Shown one piece after another: positions 1,059 to 49,338 of a stretch of DNA of 64,000 nt. The notes beneath the pieces were generated by a model. That model was not told where the DNA came from, did no database searches, and saw nothing but the letters and a program-made list of their open reading frames with translations. Both the position numbers and the translations under genes were made by a program. The stretch comes from Amphiscolops sp. MND2022 (taxonomy: Eukaryota): assembly GCA_964187785.1 (NCBI GenBank), contig OZ076409.1:52454001-52518000 (forward strand), read 5' to 3'. Positions within the stretch are counted from its first letter, which is position 1. Every line of letters begins with the position of its first letter.

Positions 1059-4000
1059 CTATAACAGCCAAATTTCCTTTTGCGAACATGTGTGATGCAT
1101 TTTTTCATCATCAATAAAAGCTACAATAAATGTATTGTTGAAGACTATAGTCGACAAGAATGACTTTTAACAGTTTTTGTGACATTGGAGAAAAGCTCTT
1201 TTTAGAAAAGAAGTGAGTTTTCAAATCATCTCAGTTTTAATCACTATCTTTTTTTGCAAAGAATGAACTTTTTCCCAAATACTTCAGTCTGTGACTATAG
1301 ATCTGAAAACGAGGCTCTACTTACTTGCTTAGCGGGGTCGAGCATCTCTACGCAGACTAAAAAATTTTTCCTGGTCACAAAAAGCTGCCCCCTGTTGTCT
1401 TGAATTCCGCCCAAAATGCACAAACTGAAAATGAACTCCTCCACATTCTCTTTTACCTAAAAACCATATACTTTATACAAGAAAAAATTTTTAAAGAAAA
1501 ATTTTTATATTAATTTTTGTTTCTTACATTGTTGGACACATCAATATGAATGATTGTGGGTTTTGTTTGAAGGCGAAGCTTCCACAGGACATCCAGGCAC
1601 TTTTTCTGGTCAATCTTCGTCTCGCAAAGTCTCATTATGATTCGTTTGAAGGTTTTGTCTTCTTGCTGTAGTTTGGATTCCAACTCCGAAACGAATAGAG
1701 ATTTTCCTGGTTCAAAGTCACATTTTTCCAATAGGCGTAAAACCAAACCAGGTTGAAATGCATTTAAAAACATAAAATTCAAAAAACTTTTTCTTGAATC
1801 GTGCTTGAATCTTGATCGTTTCTTGAATCTCACTTGAAAAAGTGCCAAAATACCTACTTGATTTCAATTGAAAAATGAATATTTAAAAGACATACCTCAA
1901 TACATACAAAAACATGTTTCATTTGTTTAAAAAATTGTAACTGGAAACGTTATATCCAAACATTTTCAAGGGAGTATGGTATAACTTACCACGATACAAC
2001 CGTTATAACTGGTTGTATTGTAGTGATGTAAAAGATCCGGGAAATTAGAAGGCTAAAGTAAAACAGTGACTTCACTCTTTTTTGTACTATCTATTATCAT
2101 CTTGTCACTACATTACTTGTTAAACTACCTGATAGCTACTCTAAATCGATCAAGTCCAGGTGGTAATTAATTTTTAGTCGGCGCTTTTCGTAGAAAAACG
2201 CAGACTATGGTAGTGACTTTTCTTTTTTTTAAGACCAACGAAGTGACAGATTTTATAAGCTTTATAAGCTGGCTTACACTAACTGCCACACTAATGTAGC
2301 TTATTCTGCTTCTCATTTTTTGAGGACTTTTTAATGTCTCCAAAAGGTCCCATTTCAATGTTTTTTAAATCTATTTTGCAAAAGAAAGGATGTTCAAAAA
2401 CTCCCAAAGTTCCCTTTACATTTTTCGGCACTATGCGACTTACCGGAGACCAAAAAAATTTCGAAAAAAAATTCAAAAAAAAATCCAGATTTTTTTTTCA
2501 ATTTTTTCCTCATGCGGGAACTGTAGAAGAAAATACTTGACACTTTGAAGTCCTTTTGCTATTTTTGAGCCTTAGATATTGCGCCGACTCGGGCCGTTCC
2601 CGGTTTGTTTAATTAGGGGAATCAATCTCACCGAGAGTTTAAACGTTACTAAAGGTTTGAATGATTCACTTTTTACCACAAAATTTTTGCAATGGCAAAA
2701 ATATTTTCCTCAATTCTAAAAATATTACACTAAAAAAGTTTTTACCGTATATCAGGAAACGCTAATGTACGATGTGAAGTCCGTGTTTTGCCTAAGATCA
2801 CAGGTAGAGCTTGTGTCCCTCTTTGCAAATTTTGTTTTCGCGTCTTTCCGTATATTGCCGAAACCTGCTCATTTGAGGCAGTACGCGTCTCAGTGCCATT
2901 TTGGTGTAAAAGCAAACTACCCATTGTGTTCTGTATTTCAGGCAATACTCTGTCGTTTATGGCTTAGCTAATGACCCTATTGATTTGCATTTGCACTCAG
3001 TTCAATAGTGAATTTATTTCTTGAGATAGTCTGGCGTTCATTTCACTTGATAATATTTCAATTGGCTATGCAAGTCCGCCTTGCCTAATTGGTCTATTTC
3101 TATTATCAGTACTCTTGATCTCATTTTTCTTGATCTCATGAGATGAGCTTCCCCTATTAGATAAAGTCTCAAAGCCCTGGTGCCCGTCCGGGCGGTTTAT
3201 GACATTGTCAAGTTCTCTTCCTATGGAATTTGAGTTTCCATCTAGCATTACGTCCATATTGCCGTACTCGGATAAAATATCAATTTCGTTAGATTTTCTA
3301 CCATTAGCTTTTTGTTTTCTAGTGGAAGACATCAGTGAGAGTACATGAGGAAACATTTGAATTGTTCCTGTAATTTGAAATATCATCTCTTTTTTACAGT
3401 GGTTCAACAAAGTAACTTTTACAGTGGTCGATTCAAAACAATGATTGGTTTCTCGAATTGCCAATTTGGATTTATTTACCCTAATCGGCATGACACTCAA
3501 GAAAGTGATAGTCATGTTTCTATAAATAACTTAGTAGCTAAAAATAGAAACCATAACTTCTATATAGAGCATCATCATCACGTCACTTAGCCCTTACGGG
3601 CGCGGCAACTTCAAAGCGCTTAACAAGGACGGGGCGTTTTAATTAAGCTGGTGAACATTTCAAGATTTTAATAACTCTACATGTGTATTACAAATCATGT
3701 TACAACCATACGGCCAATGGCATTGTAGGGCTTTTCAGGATATAGCAACAGAGAGGGTGTAAAATGGTGGTACCGGTTGTAATTAGTAATATAGTTGGTT
3801 AGGACATCTTGTACCTGCGAGGCCTTTTTTATATGTTAGCAACATAGCATCCTTACATTTGTTTTTAGCATCAACTAAATGCGTGTTTGGACTGTTTAGG
3901 CCGCATGGCCTTATTCGTCCATTCTGGTTAATTACAAATATACTGCAAATAAAGTTGTAAGTGAATGCTAGGACGTGGTTGGCCAATACGTCGTGGACGG

Positions 4001-7000
4001 CTATGCTAGCTATACTGAGCAGGCAGATATTTGAACTCGTTTCCTTTCTGCCTGTCAGTATAGCTTGCTATCAAATATCAAATGCTAATACAATAACAAA
4101 TTTACGTGTTTTGATCTAAGATGAAGTTTTAAGCATAACAGTTTATCTGTTGCAGTGGCAAAGTTCCTGGTAGTGTGATTGGTCTTCTATGGTTGGTGGT
4201 GTATAGATTACCATCACAGGTGGCAGCCTGGGATAGCTAATAAGATAGTTCATCCAAAAAGTTTGAACTGTGAGCACTGAACCTATTGTACATGCGTTTT
4301 ATGTATTAAGTCACCAGTAAAAAAAATTAAGATATTGTTATTCATATCCGTCAGTTCACTATTTAAAAAAGCGTTACTGATGTCTGCTGTTTTACCGAAA
4401 TTGCGGACTTATAACCTGCATTCCTATATGTAAATTATTCTTCAACTAGGGGCTTCATTGATCGACTCACATGAAACCATGAAAATCCTAAAAACTTTTA
4501 TGGAGAAACGAATTTCATTCAATGAAAATGAATGCCTGACTTTAGTACAAGTGCACTGTGGACCAAAAAGTGAAAAGACAGCTGATATTACAGGTTAAAA
4601 CTTTGAAAGCGCATATTTTCTTCGGATACAGAAAACAGTCACAGAACAAACAATCTCGGGTTTTGATCAGAATTACAACAATGTTTTGTGTTTTGAAATC
4701 GAACGAAAATCTGAAATGTTCTTTAACGTTTTTTGAATAATTTTAAAATTTACGAAGTATTCGAAGATTATGAAATATTCCAATTGATTTTTGTAGCCTT
4801 GACATCGTTTTTTAACTGTCAACTTTAACACTCTCCGAAGATGCCTTCTTGAAAATGTTGCCAAAAACTGTTGAAATTTCTTCAAAACGATATTTTTAGA
4901 AGTAAAAATTGAAGGATTCGTATTTTTTCTCTCATTTGGCAGTGTAAATTCTTAAAAAGAGCGTTTTCAAAAATTTTTTGGATTCTAGAAAAGTTAGAGA
5001 TGTGAATCAAAGGTACAAAATTTGACGACAGGCAGTTTTTGTTATAGACAGCGGTTCTAGGGCTGATCATTAAAAATGCTTTGCAAAGCTGAAAAAGCTT
5101 CGCAAATGGAAGCTTTTATAAGTATTCTAAGCTTTAATAATAATAAACTCTAAGATACTCATATGTTAAAATTTATCTTTTCCTACCGTCGACGTTACGT
5201 GTAAGAAATTGTGCGCAGTTTTTACATTGACTTTTTTTCCTACTCATCATAGACGAGTGATATGCACTATCATCGATCGGCACAATTTTTGATATATGCT
5301 TAGAAACGTTGCTCAGAAATTTATTTTATTGGAATTTCAAAAATGATCCCTCGATTTATAAACAATTTTAGAATGATTGCATGTCATATGGGACTGAAGA
5401 ATTAGAAAATTTTTGATGTTTCCAGTTTTCGAAAAGGCTTTAAAAGCCTAGAGAGTCCTTTTTGTTTTTTCTTGATACTATGTAGTTCTTCACCGTTTCG
5501 TAAGAACAACTTCTGTGAATCTTCAAAAACTCTGCGCTTGGGTCGTCCCGGCTATTTCATAAATGACAAAAAAAACAAGTAACCTGAAGAAGGCTGTGTT
5601 GAAGTGACCAATCTGACACTGTAACTGTCAACTTTGCTATCGGGTGTCTGCAAGTTCTCACAGATGTAATTGCGTAGACGTTGCGGGGCTTCCGAAACCA
5701 GCTCCGTTTTGTACTGTTTACCTTTCAAGGCGTCGGCAGATCGTTAAACAGAGCGAAGGTAAAGTTCACAAAAGTTAAAGTATCAGAACCATTATTTTGA
5801 AGTTAAAAACTACAGAAACATTTTTGAAATTTAAGTTTTTTTACTGGTTGATTTTTTCTATTTGAAGTTTGGAAGAAAAGTTATTTAACGTTGAAACACG
5901 ATTCCATGCGAAGAAAATCAAGGTCACGTACATGGACCATCATGCATATGGGAACCATATGGGTTGCCAACACGGATGGTTTTTCAAGACGTATTGTGTA
6001 TTGTCGCAAATCACTCAAATTGTCTGTCATGATATTCTCATGCAAGATCATCCATGATCATGGCTTTTTGAGTGATGGATAATCATGGCTGATATCATTG
6101 CGATTCATCCGCGATCATCCGAGACAGCCATAATTTATGCAAATAACTAGCTCATATCTGAAGAATACATTATGATGATGTAATCTTGAAGACAGTCTAT
6201 TATTAAATGTTTGGCCGGTATTGGTGTATTATCGGGAGTTGATTTCATGAATATTCATCCATGATTCACGGAAGTTCGTGGTTAATCATCCAATCCATGA
6301 TTCATGGATGTTCCATGGATTCTTTTCATGGTCCGCAACATGGCCAATGGCATGGCCAATGGCCGTGCCATGAATCATGGATGAATCATTGATGAAAATC
6401 TTTGACTGGGCAACGTAGGCAATAAACTCATGAATGTGATTGGTCCTACCGCTCGAGCTTTGAATGATGAAGCGAATCGGTATCTTTTGAAAACAGTCAG
6501 ATCAAATGAAATTGGTGCATGCTGGTTTCTATATTAGCATTCAGCTAATGTAAAGGTCATCTATTAATTGAACAACATGCGAACTTCATGGCTGCGAAGT
6601 TGATGTGCAGCCTCTCCAGAACTTCCACAACTGGACTTGTCTCGTCATGAACGAAGACAACTAGCTTGTAAGTGCGCTCAACGTCACGCAATTTTTCAAA
6701 CAGGTTTTCAAGATGATTTGCACAGTTAACGTCTAATTCATCTGCAAAAACCATCGAATAAACTTTCTTGTTGGGATCTTTGAGCGCCCTGAGGACAAAC
6801 ACCTCCAATTCTTCACTATTAGTATCCGAACTGCACATGAGAACTTGGGTATACTTTGGTAAGCTATCAGAATGTATAAATTGGTACAGTGATAAAACTT
6901 GGGGCAAAATTTCAGCTCGGCTCTTACAGACCACCAAATTTGGTTTCCCATTTTTCATGTGAATAGGAAGGAGTTGGTTCGTTTTGTTGGGCTCTTTGAT

Positions 7001-19000: not shown

Positions 19001-22000
19001 TTGATCGAGCTACTTGCGCAGAAAACAGCATTTTTTGGGTTGTGTTGCAATATTTGTCATGTGGTCACCGGGTCTATGGGTTTAACGTATTTCATCTGTT
19101 CTGTAGTCAGGACAGAAAATTGGCGATGTGTGAACCTCCTTTGCGGGTATAAGGATGGTCTGTAAATTTATTCACTTGAATTATAACCTGCCTTTGGGTC
19201 AGTGTGACTAGAGGAGAGCAAACTGCAATATCACCATCTTCAGTGAATGCGTCGCTTGGTTGAAGTATGCCGGTGACTGCAGTGTCATTGTCCAATTGCG
19301 GATGGATTGTAAATAAAGGTCTATCGTTTGGGGGAATTGTGATATCCTGGGTACAGATAGGTTCTAATATATTAATATATTTGTGGTCTGCTTTTTTCAG
19401 TTGCATCAAAAGGAAAAGGAAGTTCAGGGTTCCTGTCGCATGTTCAAAATGGTATTATCCCGTTGAAGGTAAAAAAGACCAATTACCGGACGTGTGAGTT
19501 TCTCCAAGACTATGAAAATTTCGTGGAATTCTTTAACGCCGACTTTGGATATTCTAGCAGCCCGTTTGCAACCATGATCTGGAAGTTGAGCTCTCTTCAA
19601 CAATTGACTGAGGGTCAAGTAATTGGATGTTACGTAGATCAGCTTCTGGGATTGCCCTAGATAAGTCTCCCGTGTCTACAAGGCCATCTATTGTTTGTTT
19701 GCCAAAATCGATTGGAAAATAGAGCATACGTAGTTTATAATTGAGTTCAAGATTAGTTGTCAGCCCTACATAAGAAGAATCCCTCGTCCTCATGACTAGT
19801 GTGTTCATAAAGCGTGCTTCTACTTCTGTAGTCATTGAGACATGTGTTCCGTTATGTTGAAATTCGTCCTTTGGGTCATCTTGGGCTAACAGGTTGACAG
19901 TATCACAGTTTGTTTGCCACTGATTTATAAGTGCAATGGTTAGTGCATTATTTAGGGCTTTTTCAATGTCAAGGGAATCAGTTCTAATTCGTTTTTGTGT
20001 TTATCGAAAATTTTGTGAAAACATGTATTGTGTTGGTTGTAGAGATGAACGTCCCAGTAATGATCAAAACTATAGTATGGGTCTGGGTAATAGGGTTTGT
20101 AGTTGTCTATGAGGGAGAGAGTTCGAGTAAAATGGGTTTTGTAGTATAGTTTATTGGACCCAAAACCCGAAATGGTTAGTGTAGTGGGAGTAGTAGACAT
20201 CTGCTGCTGCCAGTCAGCTGATGAAATATGTTTAAGGGAGAATAGTATTCACTGTGGTACGGCCCGGTTTCTTGCAATAATTGCAGGTTATCCATGGGTC
20301 AATAACCGCGGAAAGAAGGCCGTTAGCCGGTCCTGTTTCTGTTGGGGCTGTTGACATTGTTGGAAGTGGGTAACGATCTCGTCGTACGTGGCGTTTTCGA
20401 GTTTCAAGATATAAAAAGCTATATATCATTGCCTGAGCGTTTTCGCCAAACGCTTTTTCAGCTCCCGGTTCAGTTGCTCAAAGAAATATGGCAATTTCAT
20501 ATAGTTTGGGTGGTCGAACACTAATCGTTGCCATTTGTGTTTGGCGGTTGCCTGGCCTAACGTATTTTCTCCCAAATACTGCTAGTTGATCATCTAATGT
20601 TTGTCTGTTTGCCGAGTTAATGTTACGGAATATTTCAAGCGCGTATTTGCGTCCAAAAGAGTGGAAATGTTTGATCTACATCGAATCAGTCAACTCGTGC
20701 TGCAATTTTATCATAGTATAAAAGAGATCATCAAAAAGTTTTCTACAATTTCCTATCAAACGTCAGTGTGGTCGAACTAACTGGGCGGACCATGAGTGTT
20801 TGCGTCGAAGGCTATTTATACCGACTAGTATATCCGTGAGTCTGTTGATTGGCTGGAGTGGTTTTTGAAGGTGTGGTTCCTTGGACCGGTCTGGAAGAGT
20901 CCTGGGACTCAGTATGTGTGGATTCTGTATGTTGCAGGGGTTCTTGGGATTTCGTGAAACGTCCGGTGAGAAATTCAGGAACCATATGAGAGGTAGGGTT
21001 GGCCCATGTCACCATGTCGCAATCTTGGTCTACGGCCTGGAAGTCTACTGAGATCTCCCTGAATAAGTCACCATAATTCCTGAACTTAGAATTTAGCTTG
21101 CTACGATCCTGCTGGTCCAGCTGACTATATTGATCCCCGGGGCTCTTGTGTGGTCTCCTGGATCAGTGGTCTATTTGGCTGATATGATCTCCGGGGCTTC
21201 TGTCTAGTCTACTAAAACAGTGGTCCATTTTGCTAAAATGATCTCCGGCGCTTCTGTCTAGTTTACTGGACCGGTGGTCCCGCATTGTAATTAATCTCAA
21301 ATTCTGCACTCCCAACACGTGTTGAATGCTGGGGAGCACCTTTTCAGTGATTGCTGACTTGATAACTTCCAAAATCTGGGTGACTAGGTCTTCTCTGATC
21401 TCGTCTAATGTCCTGGTAACTTTAGTAATTTCATTGTTAATCATCCTAGGAGTCTCAATGGTAATTTCACTGTTCTGACCACTATTAGTGTTAATCAACG
21501 ATATAAAATCCTCACGGTCCGGGTTAGCTGGCTGCCTGTAGTCGGTTAGACTAAAGGTCTTTTTCAGTTTCTCTTCCACTGGACTGGTAGTCTCACCAGA
21601 GTAATCTGGTAGTCTACTGGACTGGTAGTCTCACCATTCCCAGAGTAATCTCCTAACATTATTTCCATATTTTCCATATCAGATATCACATCTGATTTTT
21701 GTAGAGCGTTTCTCTTTAGCCTCTGTTTCCTAGTTGAGGGCATTTGAGAAAAATGATGCTGAAAAAAGATTATTTTTGAGTTTTTATTTAATAACCAGAT
21801 TTGGACGTCAGTCTTGCATCATTGTTAGGTCCTGACTAAAAACAGCATCAATTGAGTTCCGAGTCTATAAACAGGGGGACTGGATTGCGGTCTGCCTTTT
21901 AAGTTGATATGAAGTTTCTATTAGCACTACAGCAACTGTTCATTTACATGTTAGCATCAACAAACAATAATTTCATGCGACGGACCTACGGTCCATCCGT

Positions 22001-25000
22001 CTAAATGAATACTCGCACCTGATTGGACGATAATCGATCTTAAAGTACTGCACATCGAGTTGACTAGAGTGAAAGTTTCTTTGAACGCGTTTCCTTTATT
22101 GCAAACAGTCATTACATCATTTGTCTTGATTATTACTCTTAGAAAATATCAACATTACACTTCTGGTTTACATTAACACTAGTATATGTTAATGTCTAAT
22201 AACGGTAATCTAAATTACTATACTTACAAAACGTGCAAATTCAAGTCCAAGAAAGTTTATAGGCAAATGACAATTTAGAAAATTGACCGCACATGAAGAA
22301 TAGACGGACGAATTGACCGCACTTGAAGAAATTCTGTGCTACAAACATCTATGAATTTAGATTTAGGGCTCTTAATGTCAATTTTTTGCTACTATTTTTT
22401 TCAATTCTTCTCTATGCCAAAAATTTTGAACATGATTTTTTTCCTAGAATGGGCTAAATGAGCCCAACTTTTACAGTGTGTAATTTTTTTTCAAACTCGT
22501 AAGGTTCACTGTTTTGTTCAATTTTTCAACAACAACAATTTGAACGACGGATGTACAGAATATACTCGAAACGACTGAAACTCATCCAAAACAAAAAAAC
22601 TGACGTCCAGAACCTCGAAAACACTAAGGATCCCCCTTTAGCTATCTTAGTGTTTTCCGTTTGGATTTTTTCGGCACTATGAGACTTTCTTCAATAAATT
22701 TCGGATTGCACTGAAGAGTGCCCCCTTTATTTGCTTCGATATTTTGCAACAGAATGGATGCTAAAAAATCCCGAAGGTTCCCCCCTTTCTACATTTTTCG
22801 GCACTGTGACACTGTTCAAAATTCTCAATTTTCAGTTTTTTTTCCAAAATTTTTCAATGTCTCCAAAGAGTCCCCCAAATTCCTTCTTTTTTTCCAAGTT
22901 TTGCCACAAACTGGAATATCAAAAAGCCCAAATGGTCCCCCTTTTTACAGTTATAAAAACGTTGCGCTTTTTGAGCCTTAGATTAAAAAACGCCTCCACA
23001 AAATGTATCATGGCAACCGCGATGGCCACCGTTGGGGCTGCGATGGGAAGTGCGGTGGCCACCGGTGGGGCTGCGATGGGAAAGAAGGTGGCCACCGGTG
23101 GGTTCCCTAGGTTGTCAGCACAGGAACGCATATTACCAACTCTCGAAAAAATTCACCGCAACTTCAAGCCTTATTTGGAACACCACTTTGCAAAGTAGCA
23201 AGTTGATTGGTAAAAAAACTAGTCTGTTGGAAAAGTTGGTTTTCACACAAGATAAACGCACACGCCAAAAGTATTGCGTCTTGAAGAAAGTTTCTAGTGT
23301 GCTAACTCATTGCAAGTGAGAAACTAAACGTAGAATGTAGTTTTCTCGAATTTAAAAATTGAAAAAACTTCAGATGAACACGGTTTTCGGAGAATTTTAA
23401 GTTACCAAAATACTTTATGATCAACCAACGTTACGTCCGAAGTTACGATGAACGCAATAGCAAAGATAGCAGGTGCCTGGCAAAATAGGATGTGCCTGAA
23501 AATAATTAAATTATGCATCATAATGGTCACGTTACATTACTAAATGTACGAGAAATTATAAGATGTATAGGTACGAATTGTAGTATGCGGTGCATGATTG
23601 ATACGATCTTCCTGCGATAGGCGTGATATTGCTGTGAAGGTCGCATAAAATCGGTTATCATGGATGTGATTGGTTTGGTTCTCCTAGGAAAATTTTTTGA
23701 ATTTTCTCTTCAATACAATGTCAGCTGTGTATTTCATCAATAAATCTCATCTTTGAGGTAATTGAAATTGAAAGGACGTTTTAATTTCTTCTTCAAAAGG
23801 CTTCTGTTTTTTATAAAAAAAAAACATTAATTTCCATTTTTAAAAACTACAAAACCACCTGAGGTTCTTGAGTATAGTAAGGTATTGTTGTAACTTTTCA
23901 TATCTATTTAATGTACGAACATTATGAGAAGAATCACGTATATTCAGAGACGTAGATCGGAAAATGATTGAGAGAAGTGACTAACTTTGAATTTTCATCT
24001 TTATCCATCGCAGAAAGGCTGGTTTGTCAACGAACTGCTCAATCACCCGAATTTTAGACTCAGATTGTTCAGCTAATTCGCAGCAGATGTCAATAGCTTT
24101 TTCTTCAAGGTCACAGACGTTGAGTTCTTCTAATTTTTCCTGAAAACTAAGATTTATTAACAAAATTAAAGTTTTTTTCTCAAAAAATTTTCATGCAGTT
24201 CAACCGTGCCTAAAAATCCAGAGGTTTGTTCGGGTTAGTTCTAACTTTCAGTAGTTTAGGGGTTTTTTGTGGGAAAAAAGTCCAACTTTTACAATGACGA
24301 GTTTTTTGTGAGATTACAAGCCTCACATTGATCCGTCCACTTGTTAACGACTTCATGACTGAGATCTACCGAGTACCTAAAGATATCAATTTGTCATTAC
24401 TTTGGTAAAAAAGGCTGACAAAGTTCCGTGTTAATAAGTCAGCGGATCCCGCTATCATACTTTTAGACATAGTTTCGTTGGATTTGGAAGAGTGGAATCG
24501 GCTGACATATGCTCAGTTTGAAATTTGCAATAATTTATTGGCCTCACATCGGATGATTTTTTAAACTTCAACTTCAAAACTGCATGAGACCCAACCATCC
24601 GCACTGTGCATGTTTTTCGGAATTCATAGCTTTTGCAAAATTTTCTAAAAAACAAGTTCTCAGCGTACTTTCTCAGCGTTCTCAACACGTGCACAGAAGA
24701 CTTGTTTAATTAAAGAAAAATAAAAGTTCTCGGAACAGCACCAAATAACACAATACAGGAAACTGAATTATAATAAAATATGGGCTGCACGTTTGACGTA
24801 AATTTCTGAAATTATTTTACTGTAACACGTAAAAACGGTTTTTTTACAACACGGCAAAAAAATCAAAAGTTATTTCTTCCGAATGTTCCTGTGTGACAAA
24901 GATAGACCTCAGATGTTACAAAACTATATCCAAATTGAAAGGTGCCACCTATAGAACTCGACTGATATAAATTTAGTTTGATAAGATTTTAGAGATTTTT

Positions 25001-36900: not shown

Positions 36901-37876
36901 GAAGTGAAAAATGGAGTTTTGACAGAATTTGGTAAAAAACGCAACACAGATCATGATTTTCCTCCGCCATTTACGTGGGCGGAAAATGATAAACCGTGAC
37001 TTAATAGAAAACGAACGTCTACTTTACGCAAATCTAGAAAGAAAAAAAAGTATTAAAAAGGACAAATTGAAATAATTTCACGCATTTCTGCTGAGACGTT
37101 TAGGCGACGTCAGGACAAATCATTCTCCACCTGAAAGCAAGATTAAAAATAGATCTTCTAATCATAATCATCAGCTAAATTAATTGAAACAAAATTGAGT
37201 AAAATTTTCCAAGTAGGAAACATAGAGAGATCTGAAATAGAAATTATTCTGAGGCCTATGATGAAAAGATTACGCTTTTCTGAGAAAAGGCAACCTAATT
37301 GCACTTTGAACAGCAATTAATGAATATTAGAACAACGAATTGATGGTAAAAGAACAAATATTGCCGCGACGGCTGGTATTACTAAATTAGTGACGTCAGC
37401 AAAACGTCATCAAATAGGCAGCTAGATGAAAGCATTCCAAAGTTTCTGTTGATGTTACGTCACTAGCTTGACATCTAGTTAGAATTTCTTCCAAAAGTCT
37501 CGTCAGGATCTTGTCAAACTTGGCAAACTGCCAAGCTAGCCATGAAACTTGTCAACACTACGACGCACTTTTATGAGATCATACGACGTAAGATCACATT
37601 ACGATACATGTCCCGCAAAAGTGGAAAATGATCACTTGGTGTAAATAGTATTTTGGGTAAAGAAGTCAGTTACTGTAAATTTGTCAAAGACCGTAGTAAT
37701 CAATTAGCAATCAATGGCATATTTTCACCTCTCGCTCGCGTCCAATATTGGTAAGAACTAAAACATAGTGCATTTTACGTCCATCTATTGTCGTATAAGG
37801 TTGAAAGTACTCAGGAGAGTTGAGTGATACTAAAAATCCGATTTAAGGAAACATTTGAACGTTCTCTAGATGGGGC

Positions 37877-37986
37877 ACGGTAATAAGTTCGAACGCATAA
37901 TTTTAATTTCGAATGGACTAATTCGAATTTTCCAAAAACCGGAACAAGTTCGAATCACTGTGTTCGAATTTTGAACTAACTGCCGT
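37877..37986. mobile_element. Small MITE-like element with TTCGAA repeats inside the LTR
   Basis: Imperfect terminal inverted repeats ACGGTAATAAGTTC / GAACTAACTGCCGT and five internal TTCGAA palindromes. Confidence 0.55.
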
Positions 37987-38410
37987 AAGTATAAAACGTG
38001 CCTCTGGCATTACCTCATTTCATCTAGTGCCCCGCGGCCCCTGGGGGCCGCTCATGTTACCATCTTGCTAAGCGAGGTCGAACAGGAGCAAAGACCTAGC
38101 GGGAACGGAGATCGCGAAGCGATCGTAGTGGGAGGTGGTCTTTGCGACGGTGAGGACGAGCGTACATACACCGGATATGCCCCACATTTCAGTCTTAGAT
38201 TCCTTTAGATCCTAGGCGGTGGAGCTCTCTGGATCTTGTGTGAAGGATGTCCAATTACACCGGATATGCCCGGTTTGAAAATTCGAATTTGGTGTCTCGA
38301 AACTATTCCAGGGAGGAAATAAAAGGACGCCAGAGTGGAATGATGTGATCATGTTTGATGACTAATACTAGATTAAGATCTTCGTGTCTTGATAATTGAC
38401 GAAATATTGT

Positions 38411-38467
38411 CGCGAAGTGGGGATCAAGACGCGAAGTGGGGATCAAGACGCGAAGTGGGGATCAAGA
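38411..38467. repeat. Perfect 19-bp tandem repeat x3 in the LTR
   Basis: (CGCGAAGTGGGGATCAAGA)3. Confidence 0.95.
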
Positions 38468-41400
38468 CGGGAAGCGGATAAAGTTGTCTTCCGGAATACA
38501 GAAAATGATTATCTGTTCAAGTAAAAATTAGAGATAAACTCGTGCAGGAGGGTATAAGTAGCTTGAAGTTTGTAAACTAAGGCACTCAGTCTTCCTGCTT
38601 TTGAAAAACATTGGTTTGTGAAGTTCCTAAGTAGCCTCTGCTTTGCCTTAAATACAAAACTTTGTAATCCGAATTACCAATTCAAAATCTCAAATCACGA
38701 ATTTTTTCATCAAGATGTCATCCATAAGCCAAAAGCTAAGAAATAATCAACAGAAGAACACCGAAATTGTTAATTAAACCATAACTTCTCCAGTTTTGGA
38801 AGAAAATGCAGACTTGGGTGATCAGGAAGTTGTAGTTGCGGGAACTTCATCTGCCAAGTTCCCTAAGATTGAAAATAGAGTCCTAAAAGCGCTGAGAGCT
38901 CCACTGAAGGAAAAAACAACTTCTGAGATCAGAGGACTCCTTGTTGAATCCCAAAGTAAACGTTTGAAACTGCTGAAGCCTAAAACAAACGAAAACGTTA
39001 TAGAACAGGATGAAAACACCCTAGAAGGTGAGCCTAGAGAATTTTATACACCGACAAGATGTGTGAGGATTAGTTCTACTCTAAACGACGACACAAACGC
39101 AATTCGTAACATTGTGGCATGAGTTGTAAATGACTCCACCAACTACCTGGAAAAGACGAATATAAGATCCCAAAGTCAACCAGCGCTCAAAGAGCGTCCC
39201 ATAGTTGCCAGGTTGCTTTTCGCACCGGATAGGGCCGACAACACCACGTTACCCATGCCAAAGGTAATAACAGCGTCGATCCCAACATTCGACAGGAAAA
39301 TTGAAAAATTCGAGCTATTCGAAGATCTTTTCCGTTATACCATCAAGATGTACTCACATCTCACAGAAATACGAAAGATTAACTACTTCCACTCCTTACT
39401 CCAAGGAGACGAACATCAGGCATTTCCAAGCTTAGAAGACTCCAAAAAAGATTCCCTTGACGAAATAATGAAAGTGTTCAAACGTCGTTTTGGCGATTAC
39501 CTCTCCATGGCCAAAGTACGCTGCGAATAGGACGCACTCAAATTCGACCCCACAACGCAGAAACTACACGAATTCCCGGACATACTCCAAAAAGCCTTTG
39601 GAGGCCATTGGAGCAGAAGCTCAAAAGTTTATAGACAGAGCAATCTATGCCACGTGCCAGACTATGTACAGAAGATACTGAATCGCGCTTAACTGGAAGA
39701 CAAACCGTTCAATGATATAGTCCTCCACCTAGAACGGAAGATGGGATTATATGGGCTAGGATCACCAGACGAAGTCAACCTTGTCCCACAAAATACGATC
39801 GAGCAAACCCATCCTCAAATAGAACAAGAACCTGCACTGTTTAAAAATTTGAGATACATTGCAACAGACCAAACGGAAAAACGGACCTAATAACCACGAT
39901 GCAGGTAACAGACCAAAATGCAACACGTGCGGCAAACCTCACAAAACGGAAGATTGTTGCCACGGAGCTAACGCAGCCAACGATCCAAGGCTAAAACGCA
40001 ACCACCAAACCAAGAGACAACCAGAAAAAACCGTAAAAACAACGACAGCAACCACATTAGATGGATCATAAAACTAATCACGCCGCGCCTGCGTTTCGGG
40101 GAAACAGTAGACACGAGAGCGTACCTAGAAGTAGACCCCCCATAAATCACACTCAACCTTCAATCACTACCTACAACGGAGTACTATCAGAGGATTGGCA
40201 ACGACGACAAAAGATTGCAGCAACAAAAAGACATAACGCAAAAAACGAATTTCAACAATAATACACTGAATGGTTTAGTGAATCCGAAGACCGATATATG
40301 ACAATCAGAAGAGCATTACCAAACTCAAACAAGGAAGGCACAATTTCCTCTGACAAAGACCGCCAACGGCATCACGAGAATGAACAAGATTAAACTACCC
40401 AACCCGCTCCTACCTCCAAAGATGACGACACTGAATCGCCAAATACCCATGAGAACGCCCGTGACGAACAATCTTCGACACAACCGTCATCGGAAGTCCA
40501 CACCGTCTCCACCAGCGCAATAACAAAACCTTTCCCGGGCGATCTCCTCGAATGACTCAACTCCATCAGAGAATATATCACCAGAAAGGACGTAGACACT
40601 TGCCTACGCCTACTTTCGATCAAACTACTCAAATAACGAAGCAGGATGCAAGCTCAACCAACCACATGAATTTGGAGAATTAACGATGGACGGACTAGTA
40701 GATTCAAGAGCATTCATCAAGACTAAGTCATGATCAGACTATAATGTGAACAAAGTGAACAGCGAAAACTCTGTCATCGAAGAATACCCCCAACCACCTT
40801 TCAATATCGATTGTGCGAATGCACAATTAGAACAACCCATCGCTACAGCGGACATCCAATTCAATTGTGGAACCTACACATTCAAGGACACAATCGTCAT
40901 CCTCTCAAAAACGTCTTTCCCTATAATCGGATTGAAGTTCGTGAGAAATCACCCAACAGTTATTGATACAGCGAATGGAACAATCAACTTCCGCACGTCG
41001 AAATGACGCTAGCCATGTCCGACGAAATGAAGAATTGCAACCCCAAACATTTCCAAATCCTAGCAAAGTGGAATCAAACGCTACTCTCACAACGAACCAC
41101 GACAGTAGCAGCAAGATTTAACACCACCAACACAAACGATGCCACAGGAACAGTCCAACCACTAGCAAAACTTGGCGAAACGGCAAACATAATCGTCGCC
41201 CCAGTATTAGCATCATCCCACAGAAACGAATCAACATCAGAATAGCCAATGTAACAGACTTCCCTTACACCATCAAAAACCATACCAAAATAGCAGAACT
41301 CCAAATCCTCAAGCCTCAGGAAACAAAACAAATGCGACCAAAAGACGCCGCTACACAAAAACTCTTAGAAGACCCAGATGACACACTTATATACGTCAAC

Positions 41401-44400
41401 GAAATCATAAAAACCAGGAAAGGAGAGCAGAATGACGAAACTTCTGGTTCCTTACTCCCGAAAACTCGAGGATGACCACACACCGATACAACGTCGTATA
41501 CGTTAAAAAATACAAGAACTAATCAAAAAAGAAGAATCGGACAGAACTAAAGATACAGAATCGAGGAAAGCATTCCTTAGTATGTTCAAATGGGAAGGCC
41601 CACACATCAAAAGAAAGGACAGAGAACAATTAGAACAAACAATAGTAGAATACAACGACATATTTGCGCGTCACCGACTAGACATTGGCATCAACAACAA
41701 CTTTAAAGTGAAGCGTACACGCAAAGACGAAAGTCCAGTATACACACAGAGTTTACCAGTCCAAATCAATATGAGAGAAGATCTTACAGTAAAATTAGCG
41801 CTCATATAGTTACGGCATATAACATCTCTGCCTTTCTCAAAATACTCCCGGGCACTTTTCGCACAACGAAAACCAAATGGCAAATTGCGACTACTCGTCG
41901 ACCTGCGGAAAAAAACGCGCCAATCTCAGATGATTATATAGTCAACAATCATCCAGTTAGCAACTTGTCTGACGCAGCTCAACACCTAGCAGGTGAAAAA
42001 CGTTTCTATAAACTAGACTACTTACCACGGTCTACAAATGGCAGACCAAAGATCAAACGCGATATTAGCATTTAACTTTGCCAGCAGAACCTTCGCATAG
42101 AAAAGACTGGCACAATGCCTAAGCAGAGCCCTAAAGACATTTTCCAGCTTTGAGCGTAATTACCTAGACAAAGTAATTAAAGCGCACCATTGTGCACAAT
42201 ATGTTGATGACATCAGTTTTGCTGCAAATACAGTGACGCAACTAATACGCAATATCCGAGCAGTAATTAAATGCATCAAAAAAGCAGGAGTCAAGCTGAT
42301 CATCGAAAAAGGCCACTTTGGAGTCACGGAAGTCGAGTTTCTAAATAAAACAATCACCCCCTCAAGACCACAAAATCAAAAAATTCCTTGCGAACGTGCT
42401 ATTTACCAAATCGAAAAAGCAAGTTCAAAGAAACATCGAATTTGTCAAATACTACCGTAACTATAACCCACACTCATCTGAGAAACTACTCGGATTTTTT
42501 GATCTCTTGAAAGCAGACAAACAAATTTGAATAACGGAAGAGCTGCTAGATAATTACAAGGGCCATCAACGCAGCACTAGCAGACGCGTGCGGATTGGCA
42601 CTCAAACAGCCAATCACAGGACGACAAAACGCTTTGATGATGGATGCCAGCTTTCGCGCCTCTGGCTACGCGCTAATGATAGAAGAAAATGATGAAAAAA
42701 AAACAGAATAAAAAAAACGTTCGCACCAGTCGCGTTTGGATCAAAAGTGTTCTCGCCCGCACAATTAAAACTGTCATTTTACTGCAAAGATGTCCTAGCA
42801 AATCACCATGCATTCCTAGATTAAATCCACATTCTGTGCAAAACAACTTTATCAACACTCGTAAAGACCGACAAAAAATCATCAGTAGTTCGTTTCATTC
42901 AAACAAAAGCAATTCCTCCTACATTATGGAAAGCCTGCGAATTATGTCCTGCAATTAAATTTTTATATAATGCACGTAGCAGGGACGCAAAACAACTGTG
43001 CCGATTTTCTGCCAAGAAACAACCTAAATCTCAGAGAGCGAGTTGAAATTAAAATAAAAGAAGACATAACAACCCGACCAATACAAGTGATCGTACTATC
43101 GACGGAGGTGCGGACGAAGAACAGTTTTTATTCCTACCAGAAGAAACAATCGAGACCGAAGAAGAAAATCAAGAAATCCTTCTCCAAAAAAAGCGAGACA
43201 AAACGCAGGCGACGAGGAAACAACAAAAATTAAAACGACCATCAAAGGAACGGCTCCAATACTAATAAACAAAGAATCTTCTACCTTCGGCGCAAAGAAG
43301 AAGATCCACGCATTACAGTTGAACAAGACACGGACCCAGTATTCCAAGCAATGAAAAGGAAAGTAAATTGTGAAAACTTTGATAAACACCTACTACAAAC
43401 CCATCCGAAATCCAAACGCCTAATAGTGCAAGAAGAAAGACTTATAGTCAAAGACGGCCTACTCATGCGAAAAAACAACGGGGAGTGTGGACAAGACAAA
43501 CATCACCCGATATTTATTCCCGAACACCTGATAGCTGAGCTGTACAAGGCAATACACGGACAGATGGGAAAACATTCAGGATTAATAAAAATGATTCGAG
43601 AATCAGGTCAAAGTATTACTGTCACGGACTAGCTAGAAGAATCAGACACTGGCTACTAAATTGCGAAGATTGCATCAAAGAACTGAAAATCGCCAATTCC
43701 GACCGAAATTGATCAACAATACAGAGTACGTTTCGTGACCACAGGATATCCTAGAAATAGATATTTTACCAAACCTACCAAACTCCGCAGGCTACCAAAA
43801 GATCGTTATTATAATAGACGTCTTTTCGCGATACCTAATCGCATATCCAACCCAAAACGTCACTGCCAAAACAATTGGACGACGCAGAGTCGACGTCATG
43901 ACGAGGCACGCATATTTGCCAACACTCATCCTATCGGACAAAATCTCACACTTCCGATCAGAAGTCGTTACAGAAATAGCATAGATACTAGAAATCCAAT
44001 TCAGCAACGCCTACACCAAACATGCACAGACAATTGGGATTCTGGAAAGAACTCATGCCTCTATTAAAACGGCACTTAAAGTCTCGACGGGGGAACGACG
44101 ATCCATGTGGCACAAATAGGTACAAATAGCAGTCACGAACCATCCACGGTAGCTCATGGGCGAAATCCTTACAATGTTCTTTACTAAAACTTAGGCATAA
44201 TACCGAAGTGAAAAACTACGACCAACTCGGATATTGCAGAACAACTACCAAAGCGAATTGACGAAGTACGCGCGACATCAAGAAGACAACATCATGCTAT
44301 TTTATCTCAAATACAAAAAAGTTACGACCGCAATGCGTCTGCAACCCTACTATAACTATACGACTACTGCTATATCATTAACCCGAAAGCAGACAATCAA

Positions 44401-44548
44401 TCACCAAAATTCGCATTCCAAGATTGCACCTGGCAGGTAATAAAAGTACTGTCAAACAATAATTATACAATCAGAAAAATTGGTCCAAGATACGCGCAAA
44501 CAGTACACAGAATCAGAATACGTCCTTATGTGCCAAAACAACGTGCAA

Positions 44549-46728
44549 GGTGAGTTGAGTTTTTTTTTCCATTGGCGCATCTAAAACCAACATAAAGTAC
44601 AAATCGGCAGTCCGCACAATGTCTTCTGATTCCTAATTTCTGATTCTGATAGTTTTCTTCTCCACCACTTGGTTGATACGAACGTAATATGGGGCAATTT
44701 CTGCGATTGGGCAATTACGGCAACCTTTAATCGAATCAGCCGGGGACTCTCGTAGTGGGTCCTCACCTTGGTGGAGTTTCGCCGCCGAAGTCCTTGAAGT
44801 ATCCGCCCTTCTTTGTCTCTTATCATATGTTGTTCCTTTTTTCAGGAGTTTGCAAAACTTTGGATTCCTCCAAGAAAAACTTCATTGTCTTCGTGTTTGT
44901 TGATGGTTCCGGTCTGTTAATGTTCGGTCTCTATGTTCGGTCTTATTCTTTCCCACTAAATTGTGCATCCGAGCCATATTGTGTCTTGTTTCATATTGAC
45001 AATTTTTCCCTCTCGTTCTGTAGTTTTGTCAGTATCCATCCTAGTTTTCGACAAACATCTTCTTTTTTCCCGTGTGTTACGACGATGATGTCATTTAGTC
45101 ATACGGGGGATTGGAGACTGGATGCTCAGGCTATTTTCTGTTGAAAGATTGTGGTATATTGACTGGTACGTAGAAATCCTTCATGAAACTATTTTACCTG
45201 TTGATATTTTCTCCCGTGGCTGCGGTGTTGCATTGTTTGCTGGATTCAGGTGCAAAACGCATTTGTTTCGTATTCGTAGATGAGATCTACTACTGATGTC
45301 CAATTTTGTTGAATACCGCTTTTTGATAAATCTGAGGATATTTGGTTCAGTAGTTCATCCATATTTGATTTGTTGAACCTGCTCTTTATGCAGTTTTTAT
45401 TTATATTGCGTGCGTCCGGGGTATTTGTCATTGATTTGTGTTTTTCATCTATAATAACTACGGTAGTTACGAATCCGTATTTTCCGATCGCTTTTTATCT
45501 TTCCAAATGTCCGGTTTTTATCAATCTATCTAGCTCGTTTTTGACGTCGATTTTTAGACGGTACGATATCGCATGTGCTTCTTTTGTTTTGAGTAACATT
45601 CCAGTTTTGTTTGTGTTCTTACATCCTGATTTTTGATTGCTTGTAGCGATTTTTGCTGTTGTACTCTGTTTCCCTTCACTTTTCTCCACATGAACCTGTT
45701 TTAATTTTCGTTCACATTGCTATGACTTTTTAACGGTTATTTATCTTTCCTGTTGTACATTGTGGATTGTTTTGCTAATTTGTACATTATCGCGGACGTT
45801 CTACTGTTCCTTCTTCTTTTGAACTTGCCACGTTTATGTAATTTATTCCCTATTTTCAAGTTGCGTTTGTATTTCTTCGACGAACTTGTGCGAAACCCCG
45901 TATTTTCTGGCAATTGTTGCATTTCAACAGTTTAGCTGAGCAGTTGAGCTGTGGTGTCCAGTTCGGTTTGCAAGATCCGTGGTTGTTTTTCTTTTGTGTT
46001 TGGTTTTCTTGGTTGCTGTTCTTGGTCTTGTTTTTTTCGGGATTCTTTTTTGTGTTGTGTGCATTTTCGGAATTACATCATGATATTATTTGTGGTTTCT
46101 TTTACGATTGGAGGTGGTTTTGTCGATTGTTTGTGTCGTCCGTCGTAACTGTTTGGTGTGATAAATTCCATGGTTGTTCTAAGATTTAGCGTTCTTTTGC
46201 GGAATAATTTCAGTTTCTCCCTGATTAGTTTCTTTGTCGGTTATACTGAAAAAAGTGAGTTCTTTTCTAGTGATATTGGATTCTTCCACTGTTCTTCGGG
46301 TGTTTTTGTCTTCTTCCTACATAATGCAGAAATATCCCTTGAATGTTTATCTTTGCTATGTAGAGTTCTCTGAATTATGGTAGTATTTTGTCGGTTTTGA
46401 TGGATTGTGCGTCCGTTCTGACTTCTTTTTTATTGATATGCTTAATTGCCGTTGGTCCCGTTTCTTTTTCGTCCCACCTTTCGACAGCTGGTACTGTTTC
46501 ACCTGTTATGTGATCTGTTGAATGTAGATGGTGTGGATTCTTGTGATATAATGCTACTTTTTATAATCCATTTCCTCTTTTCCTGTCGAGTCTAATGTCT
46601 CTAGATGTGGTAGCTGTAAATTGTTCGTTTTGATCATTGTTGGTTCCTTGTCGAAAAAACTTTTCGGTATTGGGCAGAAAATTTTGTCTTGCTCTCTGCG
46701 CCATATTAGTATCTCTATTAGTTAGATT
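44549..46728 (-). mobile_element. Internally deleted Ty3/Gypsy element 3 (different family)
   Basis: PBS-like TGGCGCAGAGAGC ending at 46703 (resembles tRNA-Ser-type PBS); RT remnants 'VKNELDRLIKTGHLE' and 'NMDELLNQIS'; integrase-region remnant near 44600-44800. Confidence 0.7.
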
Positions 46729-49338
46729 AACAAGCCAGGAACGGCCCAAGTCGGCGCCATACCTAAGTCTCAAAAATAGCAAAAAGACTTCAAAGTATCG
46801 AGTTCTTTTTCTACAGTACCCGTGTGTTGACCCAGACTATGTGGCAACTCGTAAATGTCTTCTCGTTGGGAAGATGGACCAGGTTCGGTCAAGTCAGATT
46901 CGACCACTTTGGTATTTGCGGTTACCGGAGTTTTGTCTGACAAAGAGTCAATTTTAGACGAAAAGTTTTCAATCATCTTTAATAACTCCCTCTGTCCCAC
47001 TTCAGTATCCTTAATCCGACGACATACAGATTTCTCTATTTTCTCAAACAATTCCGAAAAGTCTTTATCAGATATGCTGGGGAAATTTTCTGTTCTCAAA
47101 CTGGACGTCTCAGGTTCGCCTATGGAACTTGACACTGAAACCCTCCTGGCTTTCCTTTTCGAGGATCTTTCTGGCATTTTGGATTTTGAATTTTGCGAAC
47201 TTATACTAGTGAGAATAGAAGAAGTTGAGAGTTTCGAAATTTATTGATTTCACGGGCGAAAAGAACAAGGTTGTTTTCAAAAGTGGTTAACAAATTTTCA
47301 ATTAAAATTATCCAAATTTTACAGATATATACCTTCCGCAAGCTAGTGAGCGGGAAAATCCATCACGCATTCACGCTTCATTCAGCCTGGCGTCCTTCCG
47401 AGGCGAGGAAACCGGAAGTTCAGTTCCGCTTTGTCGAACTCGGACTCTCAGTTTGTTCATGCTTCCCGGGGAAAGCACGCGTCCACTTCCTGTCTGAGTT
47501 GCGACTCCGCTTCCCTTCACCTCCAATTCCCGCCTCTTTGCGACGCCGAAGCTGAGTTCAGCAGCAAAATGTACAATGACTCATAAATTTGCTTTCAAAA
47601 GAATAGGGAAAAAAGCAACGATACAATTATGATTATTTTCTGGAGATTGAAAATCTCCCAAATTATTCGAATTAAATACTGCTCTGGTCAATGATCACAT
47701 TAACAAACTGCAAAAACGATTTGTAAATCCCTTCAGTGGACATGAAAATGCTAAATAACCACAATGGAAAAATCCAAATCCCAGGCGGTGGTCCGGGACG
47801 ATTTGGAAAAGTCGAAGGAATATTCCATGAACAAAATTTTGTAGCAACGAAACAAAGATTTACATGAAAATAAGTCATCCCAGGGACACTATTTGGGACG
47901 TTAATTAACCTGGTTACAAAAGAATTTGCTTGGGAGAAATAATACGGCACAGTTTAAGAATTTTAGTCTCAGGCCGGGGTCTGGGCAATGGTTTCATATT
48001 ACCAGATGATTGAACATAGTTGCATGAGTAAATTATCACAGATAGCACGCAATCAGCCATTATTATTTGCAATTACACATATCAGGTCGTGGTTTCATTG
48101 AGGGAATGTAAAAATAACTGTAGCACCATTATTTTCATTTCAGGAGTGTGTTCTGACATTTTTCATCTCAGGCCACGTCCTGGGCCGCAGTCCGGTGCGT
48201 TTAGAAAGTGAACATTGTTACATGAACAAAACTGCTACAAATTACATGCAATTAACGGTTATCATTTAAAATCATGAGTATTGGTTCATGGCTTCATTGG
48301 GAAAGGCAGAAAATCATTATTAACATCATCATCTTCCATAAAAATGGATTTCTATGCGTTTTATTCTCAGGCCGTGCCTCAGGCCGTGGTATTCAATTTC
48401 TGTACGTTCGTTGTTTTCATTCAATCACTTGTACAGTAATACGCGTTGCATCGTTCAATTCGCATACAAAATGCTTTACCAGGTTAATGCTCATACAATA
48501 GTACTGCACTATGCTGTTAATTAGCAGCGCACAGCATATTTTGATTTCAGGCCACACTCGCCTGGCCGGCGGTTCAGTTCTTAAATCTCAGGCCGGTTGC
48601 CAGGCCGCGGTTCCGCTATTGTTATCATTTATATAGCACTAATTAATATTATTAACTGCACTAACAGCTTTTTACTGGTTGGTACACTGTGTGTGTATGT
48701 ATATATTAAGTAATTCTGTATATATGTACATATACATGTTTAAGTCTAATTTTAGCTCCGAAATAATTTAAAGTAATGATTATATATATTAGCACTAAAT
48801 TAGTTGTATATTAGTTATTTCACTTGCCTTTCCTTTTCTTTTACTCTAATCCCAACTTCCTTCTTCGTAGACCGCGCTTGCTACGTGACAGGTCTCACAG
48901 CTTAGCTGGGGCTGTGACAACCCGAATGAGGAAAAAAATTCTCCACAAATTTTCTCAAGATTTTTTGGATGTCTCTGGTTTGTCGCATAGTACCAAAAAA
49001 TGTAAGAGGGGGTTGCAAAATGGAGAAATATTGAAGGGGGGACTCTTTGGAGACTTTTAAAATATATTGCGAAACAAAATTTCACAAAGTCGTAAAAAAT
49101 GGTCAAGGGCGAGACTCGAACCCATCTCCTTCTGCTTGGCAGAACTCAAAAAATCCTAATTAGCCTCTATGCCAAGTGCCAGTAGAAGTAACAATTTAGT
49201 GTGGCATTTAGTGTTAGTGGGAGCCAGCTTATGAAGCTTATGAAATCTGTCATTTCCTTCGTCTTAAAAAAAAAAGAGAAAAAGAAAAGTCACTGCTATA
49301 GTCTGCGTTTTCTTCGAAAAGCGACGACTGATAAAAAC
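46729..49338 (-). mobile_element. HINE-family copy split by a solo LTR
   Basis: 3' stem-loop and subTIR at 46729-46760; the family sequence stops at 46822 and resumes colinearly at 48920; 5' end AGTCGTCGCTTTTCGAAGAAAACGCAGACT at about 49300-49330. Confidence 0.75.
46823..48919 (-). mobile_element. Solo LTR (2097 bp) with an intact Gag-start-like ORF
   Basis: TG...CA termini and a perfect 5-bp TSD ACCCG (46818-46822, 48920-48924). TATA-like GGTATATA at about 47330 precedes ORF 47177->46770 (MPERSSKRKARR...). Confidence 0.85.

Follow-up and report, generated by a model that had tools for sequence, protein, structure and literature searches.

A Ty3/Gypsy lineage with its gag start codon inside the LTR, and the gene stub carried by a solo LTR

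Protein-coding sequence that lies in long terminal repeats (LTRs), and is duplicated at both ends of the element, is known from nef of HIV and sag of MMTV. These are separate accessory genes that are located in U3 and read from the 3' LTR. The open reading frame (ORF) described here differs from both in that it forms the beginning of gag and is read from the 5' LTR.

In the retrotransposon Ty1 of Saccharomyces (Ty1/copia), the primer site lies inside the GAG ORF (PMC4974528). The excerpts of the reports drawn on here give a 5' UTR of 53 nt (PMC3592414) and a primer site from nt 94 (PMC4974528), which by subtraction implies that about 40 nt of GAG are inside the LTR. Solo LTRs of Ty1 are abundant, as stated in an excerpt of a further report (PMC7055915). 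For Ty3, the first of these sources describes, in the part used, a 5' primer-site segment that adjoins the 5' UTR and is not within GAG (PMC4974528).

We analysed a window, that is, one stretch of 64,000 nucleotides of Amphiscolops sp. MND2022 (contig OZ076409.1), and compared its LTRs with copies elsewhere in the genome. As in Ty1, the gag ATG of the present lineage is inside the LTR and the primer site is inside gag. Unlike Ty1, the lineage is of the Ty3/Gypsy type and has 355 to about 640 nt of gag in the LTR, about 9-16 times the length derived from the Ty1 excerpts; it also differs in its tRNA-Leu primer, its LTRs of 2 kb and a complete predicted helix on which purifying selection acts. 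The pol order protease-RT-RNase H-integrase and an Arc/PNMA-like capsid are shared with Ty3/Gypsy (Metaviridae-type) elements, whereas the present elements differ from Ty3 by a stretch of antisense coding DNA, several kb long, ahead of the 3' LTR. The gag start inside the LTR, which would make U5 a long coding region, is real, lineage-wide and selected, and it is a variation on the Ty1 layout. Crude phrase matching of the literature, with Repbase reports and most subscription papers outside its scope, returned no description of a gag ATG located hundreds of nucleotides within an LTR, and the excerpts used of the report on the Oikopleura Tor elements (PMC4402516) mention no gag/LTR overlap of this kind.

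We consider it very probable that the repeat at 46823-48919 is a solo LTR of a Ty3/Gypsy lineage in which gag runs from 118 codons inside the LTR through a tRNA-Leu primer site into the capsid, and that its gag stub is a passive remnant in neutral decay.

The solo LTR and related LTRs in the window

The features of the solo LTR and of the three other LTRs are listed below in window positions.

46823..48919, minus strand: solo LTR of 2097 nt, Ty3/Gypsy family (called F4); TG...CA ends, target duplication, match to paired-LTR copies
46818..46822, no strand: 5-bp target-site duplication ACCCG on the 3' side of the LTR, from the sequence
48920..48924, no strand: 5-bp target-site duplication ACCCG on the 5' side of the LTR, from the sequence
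46823..47177, minus strand: first 118 codons of gag plus 1 nt, located in the LTR (predicted U5); in frame with the capsid in 5' LTR copies, purifying selection
46770..46822, minus strand: continuation of the ORF in the flank for 17 codons before a stop; chance length compared with random starts
46729..46817, resuming at 48925-49330, no strand: short dispersed repeat split by the LTR; its other copy in the window, at 2412-2609, aligns across the insertion point
47326..47331, minus strand: TATA-like box 154 nt 5' of the ATG (predicted U3 promoter); TATA(T/A)A in 26/32 copies
47240..47245, minus strand: AATAAA 68 nt 5' of the ATG (predicted poly(A) signal in R); AATAAA/ATTAAA in 25/32 copies
46935..47069, minus strand: predicted single long amphipathic helix over codons 37-81, possibly a coiled coil; AlphaFold, hydrophobic period, pN/pS 0.17
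2766..4235, minus strand: decayed solo LTR of the related family F1; ATG 567 nt inside, stop after 88 codons; duplication TTAGC
21015..22343, minus strand: 5' LTR of a decayed related element, F2; ATG 729 nt inside, stop after 59 codons; followed by the primer site and by remnants of capsid and pol (15.9-20.7 kb)
37453..39111, plus strand: 5' LTR of a decayed related element, F3; gag start at 38715 (397 nt inside), codon 21 being a stop; LTR-end homology, Gag homologue P0109

Read on the minus strand (48919-46823), the solo LTR begins with TGTCAC and ends with CAACACA, and it aligns end to end with the LTRs of paired-LTR copies at 91.5-92.9% identity. Its ATG is 355 nt from the LTR 3' end. The ORF that starts there (47177-46770, minus strand) encodes 135 aa, of which 118 codons plus 1 nt are in the LTR and 17 codons in the flank; a Pfam search with this product gave no significant match. 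An ORF of 130 aa on the opposite strand (46855-47247) was rejected as a gene, as it is the antisense shadow of gag, with its ATG in 6/32 LTR copies and at least 120 open codons in 8/32.

The ORFs of the other three LTRs are broken, with 88, 59 and 20 codons to the first stop. The 3' ends of these LTRs were checked at 60 genomic loci (20 per family, window copies included). Homology to the genomic copies stops at about the same ...ACA, which is followed by the primer site in a minority of loci and by unrelated DNA in most, and the ends assigned here rest on this stop of homology and on the TTAGC duplication of the copy at 2766-4235. Three candidate LTR pairs for these families were discarded: a segment duplicate of 99.9%, a rearranged repeat and a missed partner. 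For F3, the Gag homologue P0109 matches in one frame over 38715-39803, spanning the LTR end.

These measurements agree with much of an earlier note on this DNA. It had placed an ATG 355-730 nt from the 3' end of four LTRs, and we measured 567, 729, 397 and 355 nt; its 3' ends for the other three LTRs are right by where homology stops in the genomic copies, and its intact 135-aa ORF, with no stop inside the solo LTR and an end 17 codons into the flank, is recovered by the ORF coordinates. The TATA-like motif that it saw in three LTRs is present as a strict TATA(T/A)A at -154 in the 46823 copy and at -234 in the 2766-4235 copy; the 37453 copy has TATAAG at about -162, and no strict motif was found in the 21015 copy. 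The four LTRs had also been called independent; instead, they represent families within a single lineage that share the primer site and the junction motif. Judged by sequence, the gag start inside the LTR is one inherited trait of all four, since the xMVTG junction motif described below is found in 93/98 Gag homologues.

The LTR/primer-site junction and selection on the LTR-borne codons

Searching the genome (1.07 Gb) with the last 578 nt of the LTR yielded 313 first-look candidates, of which 40 were scored. Nine pairs of hits lie 11-16 kb apart and were treated as separate 5' and 3' pieces. The LTRs within such a pair are about 93-98% alike, and the target duplications are exact over 5 bp in eight of the nine copies and match at 4/5 positions in the ninth. 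The primer site TGGTGACA(G/A)GAG directly follows the 5' LTR in 8/9 copies; the remaining copy has a deletion there. In all 5' and 3' LTRs that show a start motif and have no deletion at their end, the ATG is 353-355 nt from that end.

We furthermore compared 30 LTR/primer-site junction loci that were chosen by the sequence 3' of the primer site. A start motif was recognisable in 20 of these, at exactly 355 nt in 15, and not in the other 10. The frame is open across the junction at 14 loci, and at four of them it covers 404-518 aa. The primer site TGGTGACAGGAG is exact in 26/30 loci; it pairs over 13 nt with the 3' end of genomic tRNA-Leu(CAG) plus CCA, and one of six scanned loci was called as a tRNA. 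As a separate observation, tRNA-Leu-like 3' ends have 920 matches genome-wide, with a dense tandem array at C8:35.59-35.64 Mb that may represent an abundant primer tRNA or a tRNA-derived satellite.

The junction itself reads CAA CAC A/TG GTG ACA GGA (Q-H-M-V-T-G), where the slash marks the LTR end. An xMVTG-type motif, mostly H/N/D-M-V-T-G, occurs in 93/98 Gag homologues down to a capsid identity of 32%, commonly 103-214 residues into the protein. This set was limited to homologues in which 150 or more residues precede the capsid motif, and the LTR border was placed by the motif in protein only. The phase of the gag frame is kept across families with 103-214 residues on the LTR side.

The methionine of this motif would offer a second in-frame start. 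In such a reading, the AUG in the LTR gives a long Gag, and the AUG at the junction, formed by the LTR-terminal A and the TG of the primer site, gives a short Gag that lacks the LTR domain, perhaps gated by tRNA binding. An in-frame methionine with G at +4 is indeed present at the junction in 93/98 homologues and in 28/30 genomic loci. However, the junction triplet is forced by the CA of the integrase end and the CCA of the tRNA, so its conservation needs no translational role, and several in-frame methionines lie upstream, for example at codon 68. We thus regard two starts as unlikely.

Selection was estimated from an alignment of 32 LTR copies, consisting of 26/30 loci of the genome search and six LTRs of the paired-hit set; L009, L026 and L030 (deleted ends) and L021 (the tandem twin of L020) were dropped. 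Variants common to at least three copies are distributed as 32/15/96 over the three codon positions (chi-square p 2e-17, sites treated as independent), compared with 49/49/41 for singletons and 33/35/32 in an upstream non-coding control. Pairwise dN/dS is 0.50 for copies less than 6% apart, 0.22 at 6-10%, 0.17 at 10-15% and 0.10 above 15%, and it is 0.98 between the 5' and 3' LTR of the same insertion (eight pairs); these ratios are descriptive, as pairs share history and are not independent samples. At the 30 junction loci, pN/pS is 0.16 for codons 1-12, 0.27 for codons 13-35, 0.17 for codons 36-80 and 0.16 for the capsid; the linker (codons 81-118) is weakly constrained at 0.67.

From these dN/dS, pN/pS and codon-position patterns we conclude that the LTR-borne codons are under purifying selection as part of Gag in transposing lineages and decay neutrally after insertion. 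The main claim of the earlier note, that Gag starts deep inside the LTR, is well founded: the ATG is present in both LTRs of paired copies, and the frame is under purifying selection and continues through the LTR end and the tRNA-Leu primer site to capsid and zinc knuckles. Neither an LTR that ends before the ATG nor a frame out of phase with the capsid or neutral across the lineage was found. A reading in which the frame in the LTR is open by chance, with translation of Gag beginning no earlier than the primer site, is hardly credible: the junction AUG and the weakly conserved linker are all that favour it, whereas the skew towards third positions, the pN/pS of 0.16-0.27 over codons 1-80 and the phase kept across families speak against it.

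Two side observations concern the same region. In the same copies (L109-L138), pS is 0.58-0.77 in the LTR-borne codons and 0.27-0.36 in gag after the junction; this difference of about twofold is possibly due to LTR swapping or to the choice of loci by internal similarity. Moreover, tandem LTR pieces with duplicated ends occur at L020/L021 (C8) and C7:54409698-54413358, and the Gag homologues P0120 and P0135 have repeated MVTG-like junction motifs, which suggests that the frame tolerates local duplications of the segment spanning LTR end and primer site.

Gag, Pol and proposed transcription layout of the source element

In natural open stretches, Pfam detected a protease upstream, followed by RVT_1, RT_RNaseH, Integrase_H2C2 and rve in one stretch of 742 aa. 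The nearest solved RT is that of Ty3 (E 1.4e-27), and the source element can be assigned to the Ty3/Gypsy LTR retrotransposons. A natural ORF of 456 aa matches DUF1759 above and Retrotrans_gag below the Pfam cut-off, both 3' of the junction. The Gag translation has two Cys/His knuckle motifs and Atlas matches to PNMA/zf-CCHC/Retrotrans_gag at 0.93; its best fold matches, the dArc1 and PNMA2 capsids, are weak (E 4.5e-3 to 1e-2, none at E<=0.001). In the AlphaFold model of Gag (mean pLDDT 61), residues 1-31 and 83-138 are disordered, residues 37-81 form a helix (block pLDDT 72-90), and the capsid helices begin at about residue 170. Hydrophobic positions in helix 37-81 are conserved with a period near 3.6, and it is predicted to be an amphipathic helix or possibly a coiled coil.

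Before the 3' LTR, a purine-rich tract that ends in GAAGCCGAGGAC is conserved but interrupted. Antisense open stretches of 200-520 aa lie between integrase and the 3' LTR in 9/9 3' pieces (for example L036:512-3087, L040:678-1850 and L048:178-2755), and those that were compared had no Pfam or Atlas match. A sense open stretch of 206 codons (L048:4227-4844, matched in L044) extends through the purine tract and covers about the first 70 nt of the 3' LTR (compare 48849-48919 in the window); from these two copies, the U3 end of the LTR may also be coding.

Upstream of the gag ATG, TATA(T/A)A is located at -149 to -164 in 26/32 copies (absent there in six) and AATAAA/ATTAAA at -67 to -70 in 25/32 (absent there in seven). 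The conserved AATAAA between TATA and ATG had been overlooked in the earlier note. The order TATA, AATAAA, ATG is also found in sister subfamilies with other spacings. No upstream ATG occurs in the last 130 nt in 29/32 copies, and the start context is AAAATGC. From these positions, R would span about -125 to -45 and the gag codons would fall within U5, with borders drawn from motifs. An AATAAA in the 5' LTR has to be skipped, and as neither a stable hairpin over AATAAA (z -0.1 to 0.8 in six copies) nor a conserved splice donor (three scattered matches in 32 copies) was found, closeness to the cap is our default guess. No processed poly(A)-tailed copies that terminate behind AATAAA were recovered with the one exact pattern used, a result that is uninformative.

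We propose the following account. The RNA would start about 125 nt 5' of the ATG, behind the TATA box, and the AATAAA 68 nt 5' of the ATG would end the RNA in the 3' LTR and be skipped near the cap in the 5' LTR. The first 118 codons would thus be in U5 and be translated at the RNA 5' end. Reverse transcription copies U5 into both LTRs by its established mechanism; the genomic RNA would stop short of the ORF in the 3' LTR, and the translated 5' end would be the source of the ORF in both LTRs. In translation, the integrase end CA together with the primer site TGGTGACAGGAG yields H/N/D-M-V-T-G. The LTR-borne part is predicted to add to Gag a basic tail, one long amphipathic helix and, before the capsid, a flexible linker; selection acts on this part, as a portion of Gag, while elements transpose. 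Recombination between LTRs, again an established mechanism, would leave one LTR with promoter and stub, consistent with the single LTR between duplicated target bases at our locus, and changes then accumulate without selection, as observed for the family. Leftover repeats such as that at 46823-48919 carry a gene stub because at least the first 118 gag codons are inside the LTR.

This layout stretches textbook LTR anatomy, as several hundred LTR bases, the integrase attachment end and the primer site are under constraint as protein code. The first product of reverse transcription (R-U5) would be about 480 nt or more. Annotation pipelines that seek gag only between LTRs would clip 100-210 residues from the Gags of this lineage, and LTR clocks would be biased if they assume no coding constraint between families.

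The fate of the stub in solo LTRs

The earlier note had suggested that solo LTRs seed chimeric proteins or a truncated, dominant-negative Gag. The corresponding reading is that solo LTRs are transcribed and translated and that the helix-bearing stub poisons or tunes Gag assembly, as a form of copy-number control, or founds chimeric proteins. Several features agree with it. Copies are numerous, given the 313 first-look candidates for the LTR end; the TATA box is kept, upstream ATGs are few and the start context is AAAATGC; the stub holds the whole conserved amphipathic helix; and the 118-codon frame is intact in 12/23 solo/3' LTRs. The proportion of intact frames is however no higher than in 5' LTRs (5/9, Fisher p 1.0), and because intactness is similar in both classes, the solo copy at 46823-48919 is typical for its age. 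Change after insertion is neutral across copies: purifying selection of the kind expected for a domesticated gene was not found family-wide, as seen in the even singletons and the dN/dS of 0.98 between LTRs of one insertion. The copy at 46823-48919 has three private changes (2/0/1 by codon position), too few for a selection test at this locus.

The lengths of the run-outs are also as expected by chance. In the 12 intact copies they range over 2-46 codons, except for one of a single codon, with a median of 12.5, against 13 for random starts; 44% of such starts in the window extend for at least 16 codons. Furthermore, AATAAA precedes the ATG in the solo LTR. If skipping of this signal depends on closeness to the cap, a solo LTR could read through it too; if internal sequence is needed, it could not. 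Residues 1-118 of the stub are modelled as disorder plus one helix, without the capsid, whose helices are predicted after residue 170. A truncated Gag that derives from the element itself is known as the restriction factor p22/p18 of Ty1, and the proposal for the stub resembles it in this respect; the stub differs in being the N-terminal quarter of Gag, with no selection after insertion and without the capsid half on which restriction by p22 depends.

In view of neutral decay, chance run-outs, the position of AATAAA and a stub without the capsid half, the suggestion of chimeric or dominant-negative products is not borne out, and we consider a protein role of solo LTRs improbable. Interference of the stub with Gag through the modelled helix is possible. 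A bolder version, to which we give equally little weight, is that an animal Gypsy lineage made U5 a Gag domain of 100-210 codons, with its many solo LTRs as promoter-plus-helix cassettes whose products enter Gag oligomers and damp transposition as copy number rises, and which occasionally found chimeric genes. Most likely, the solo LTR at 46823-48919 is an ordinary recombination leftover. The lineage is a natural setting in which to ask whether solo LTRs can act back on the family they come from, and gene callers can be expected to report many spurious short 'genes' from its solo LTRs.

The surroundings of this copy likewise speak against a protein role, as only the repeat and decayed pol-like DNA lie 3' of the ORF stop. 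The decayed pol-like DNA at 44550-46720 (minus strand) is from another element, which is arranged head to head with that at 37453-44540. Elsewhere in the window, two host-like ORFs of 1009 and 462 aa (27427-30456 and 6557-7945, both minus strand) have LTR-element remains between them and a weak UBA-like match only in Pfam; they may resemble RNF213-like proteins.
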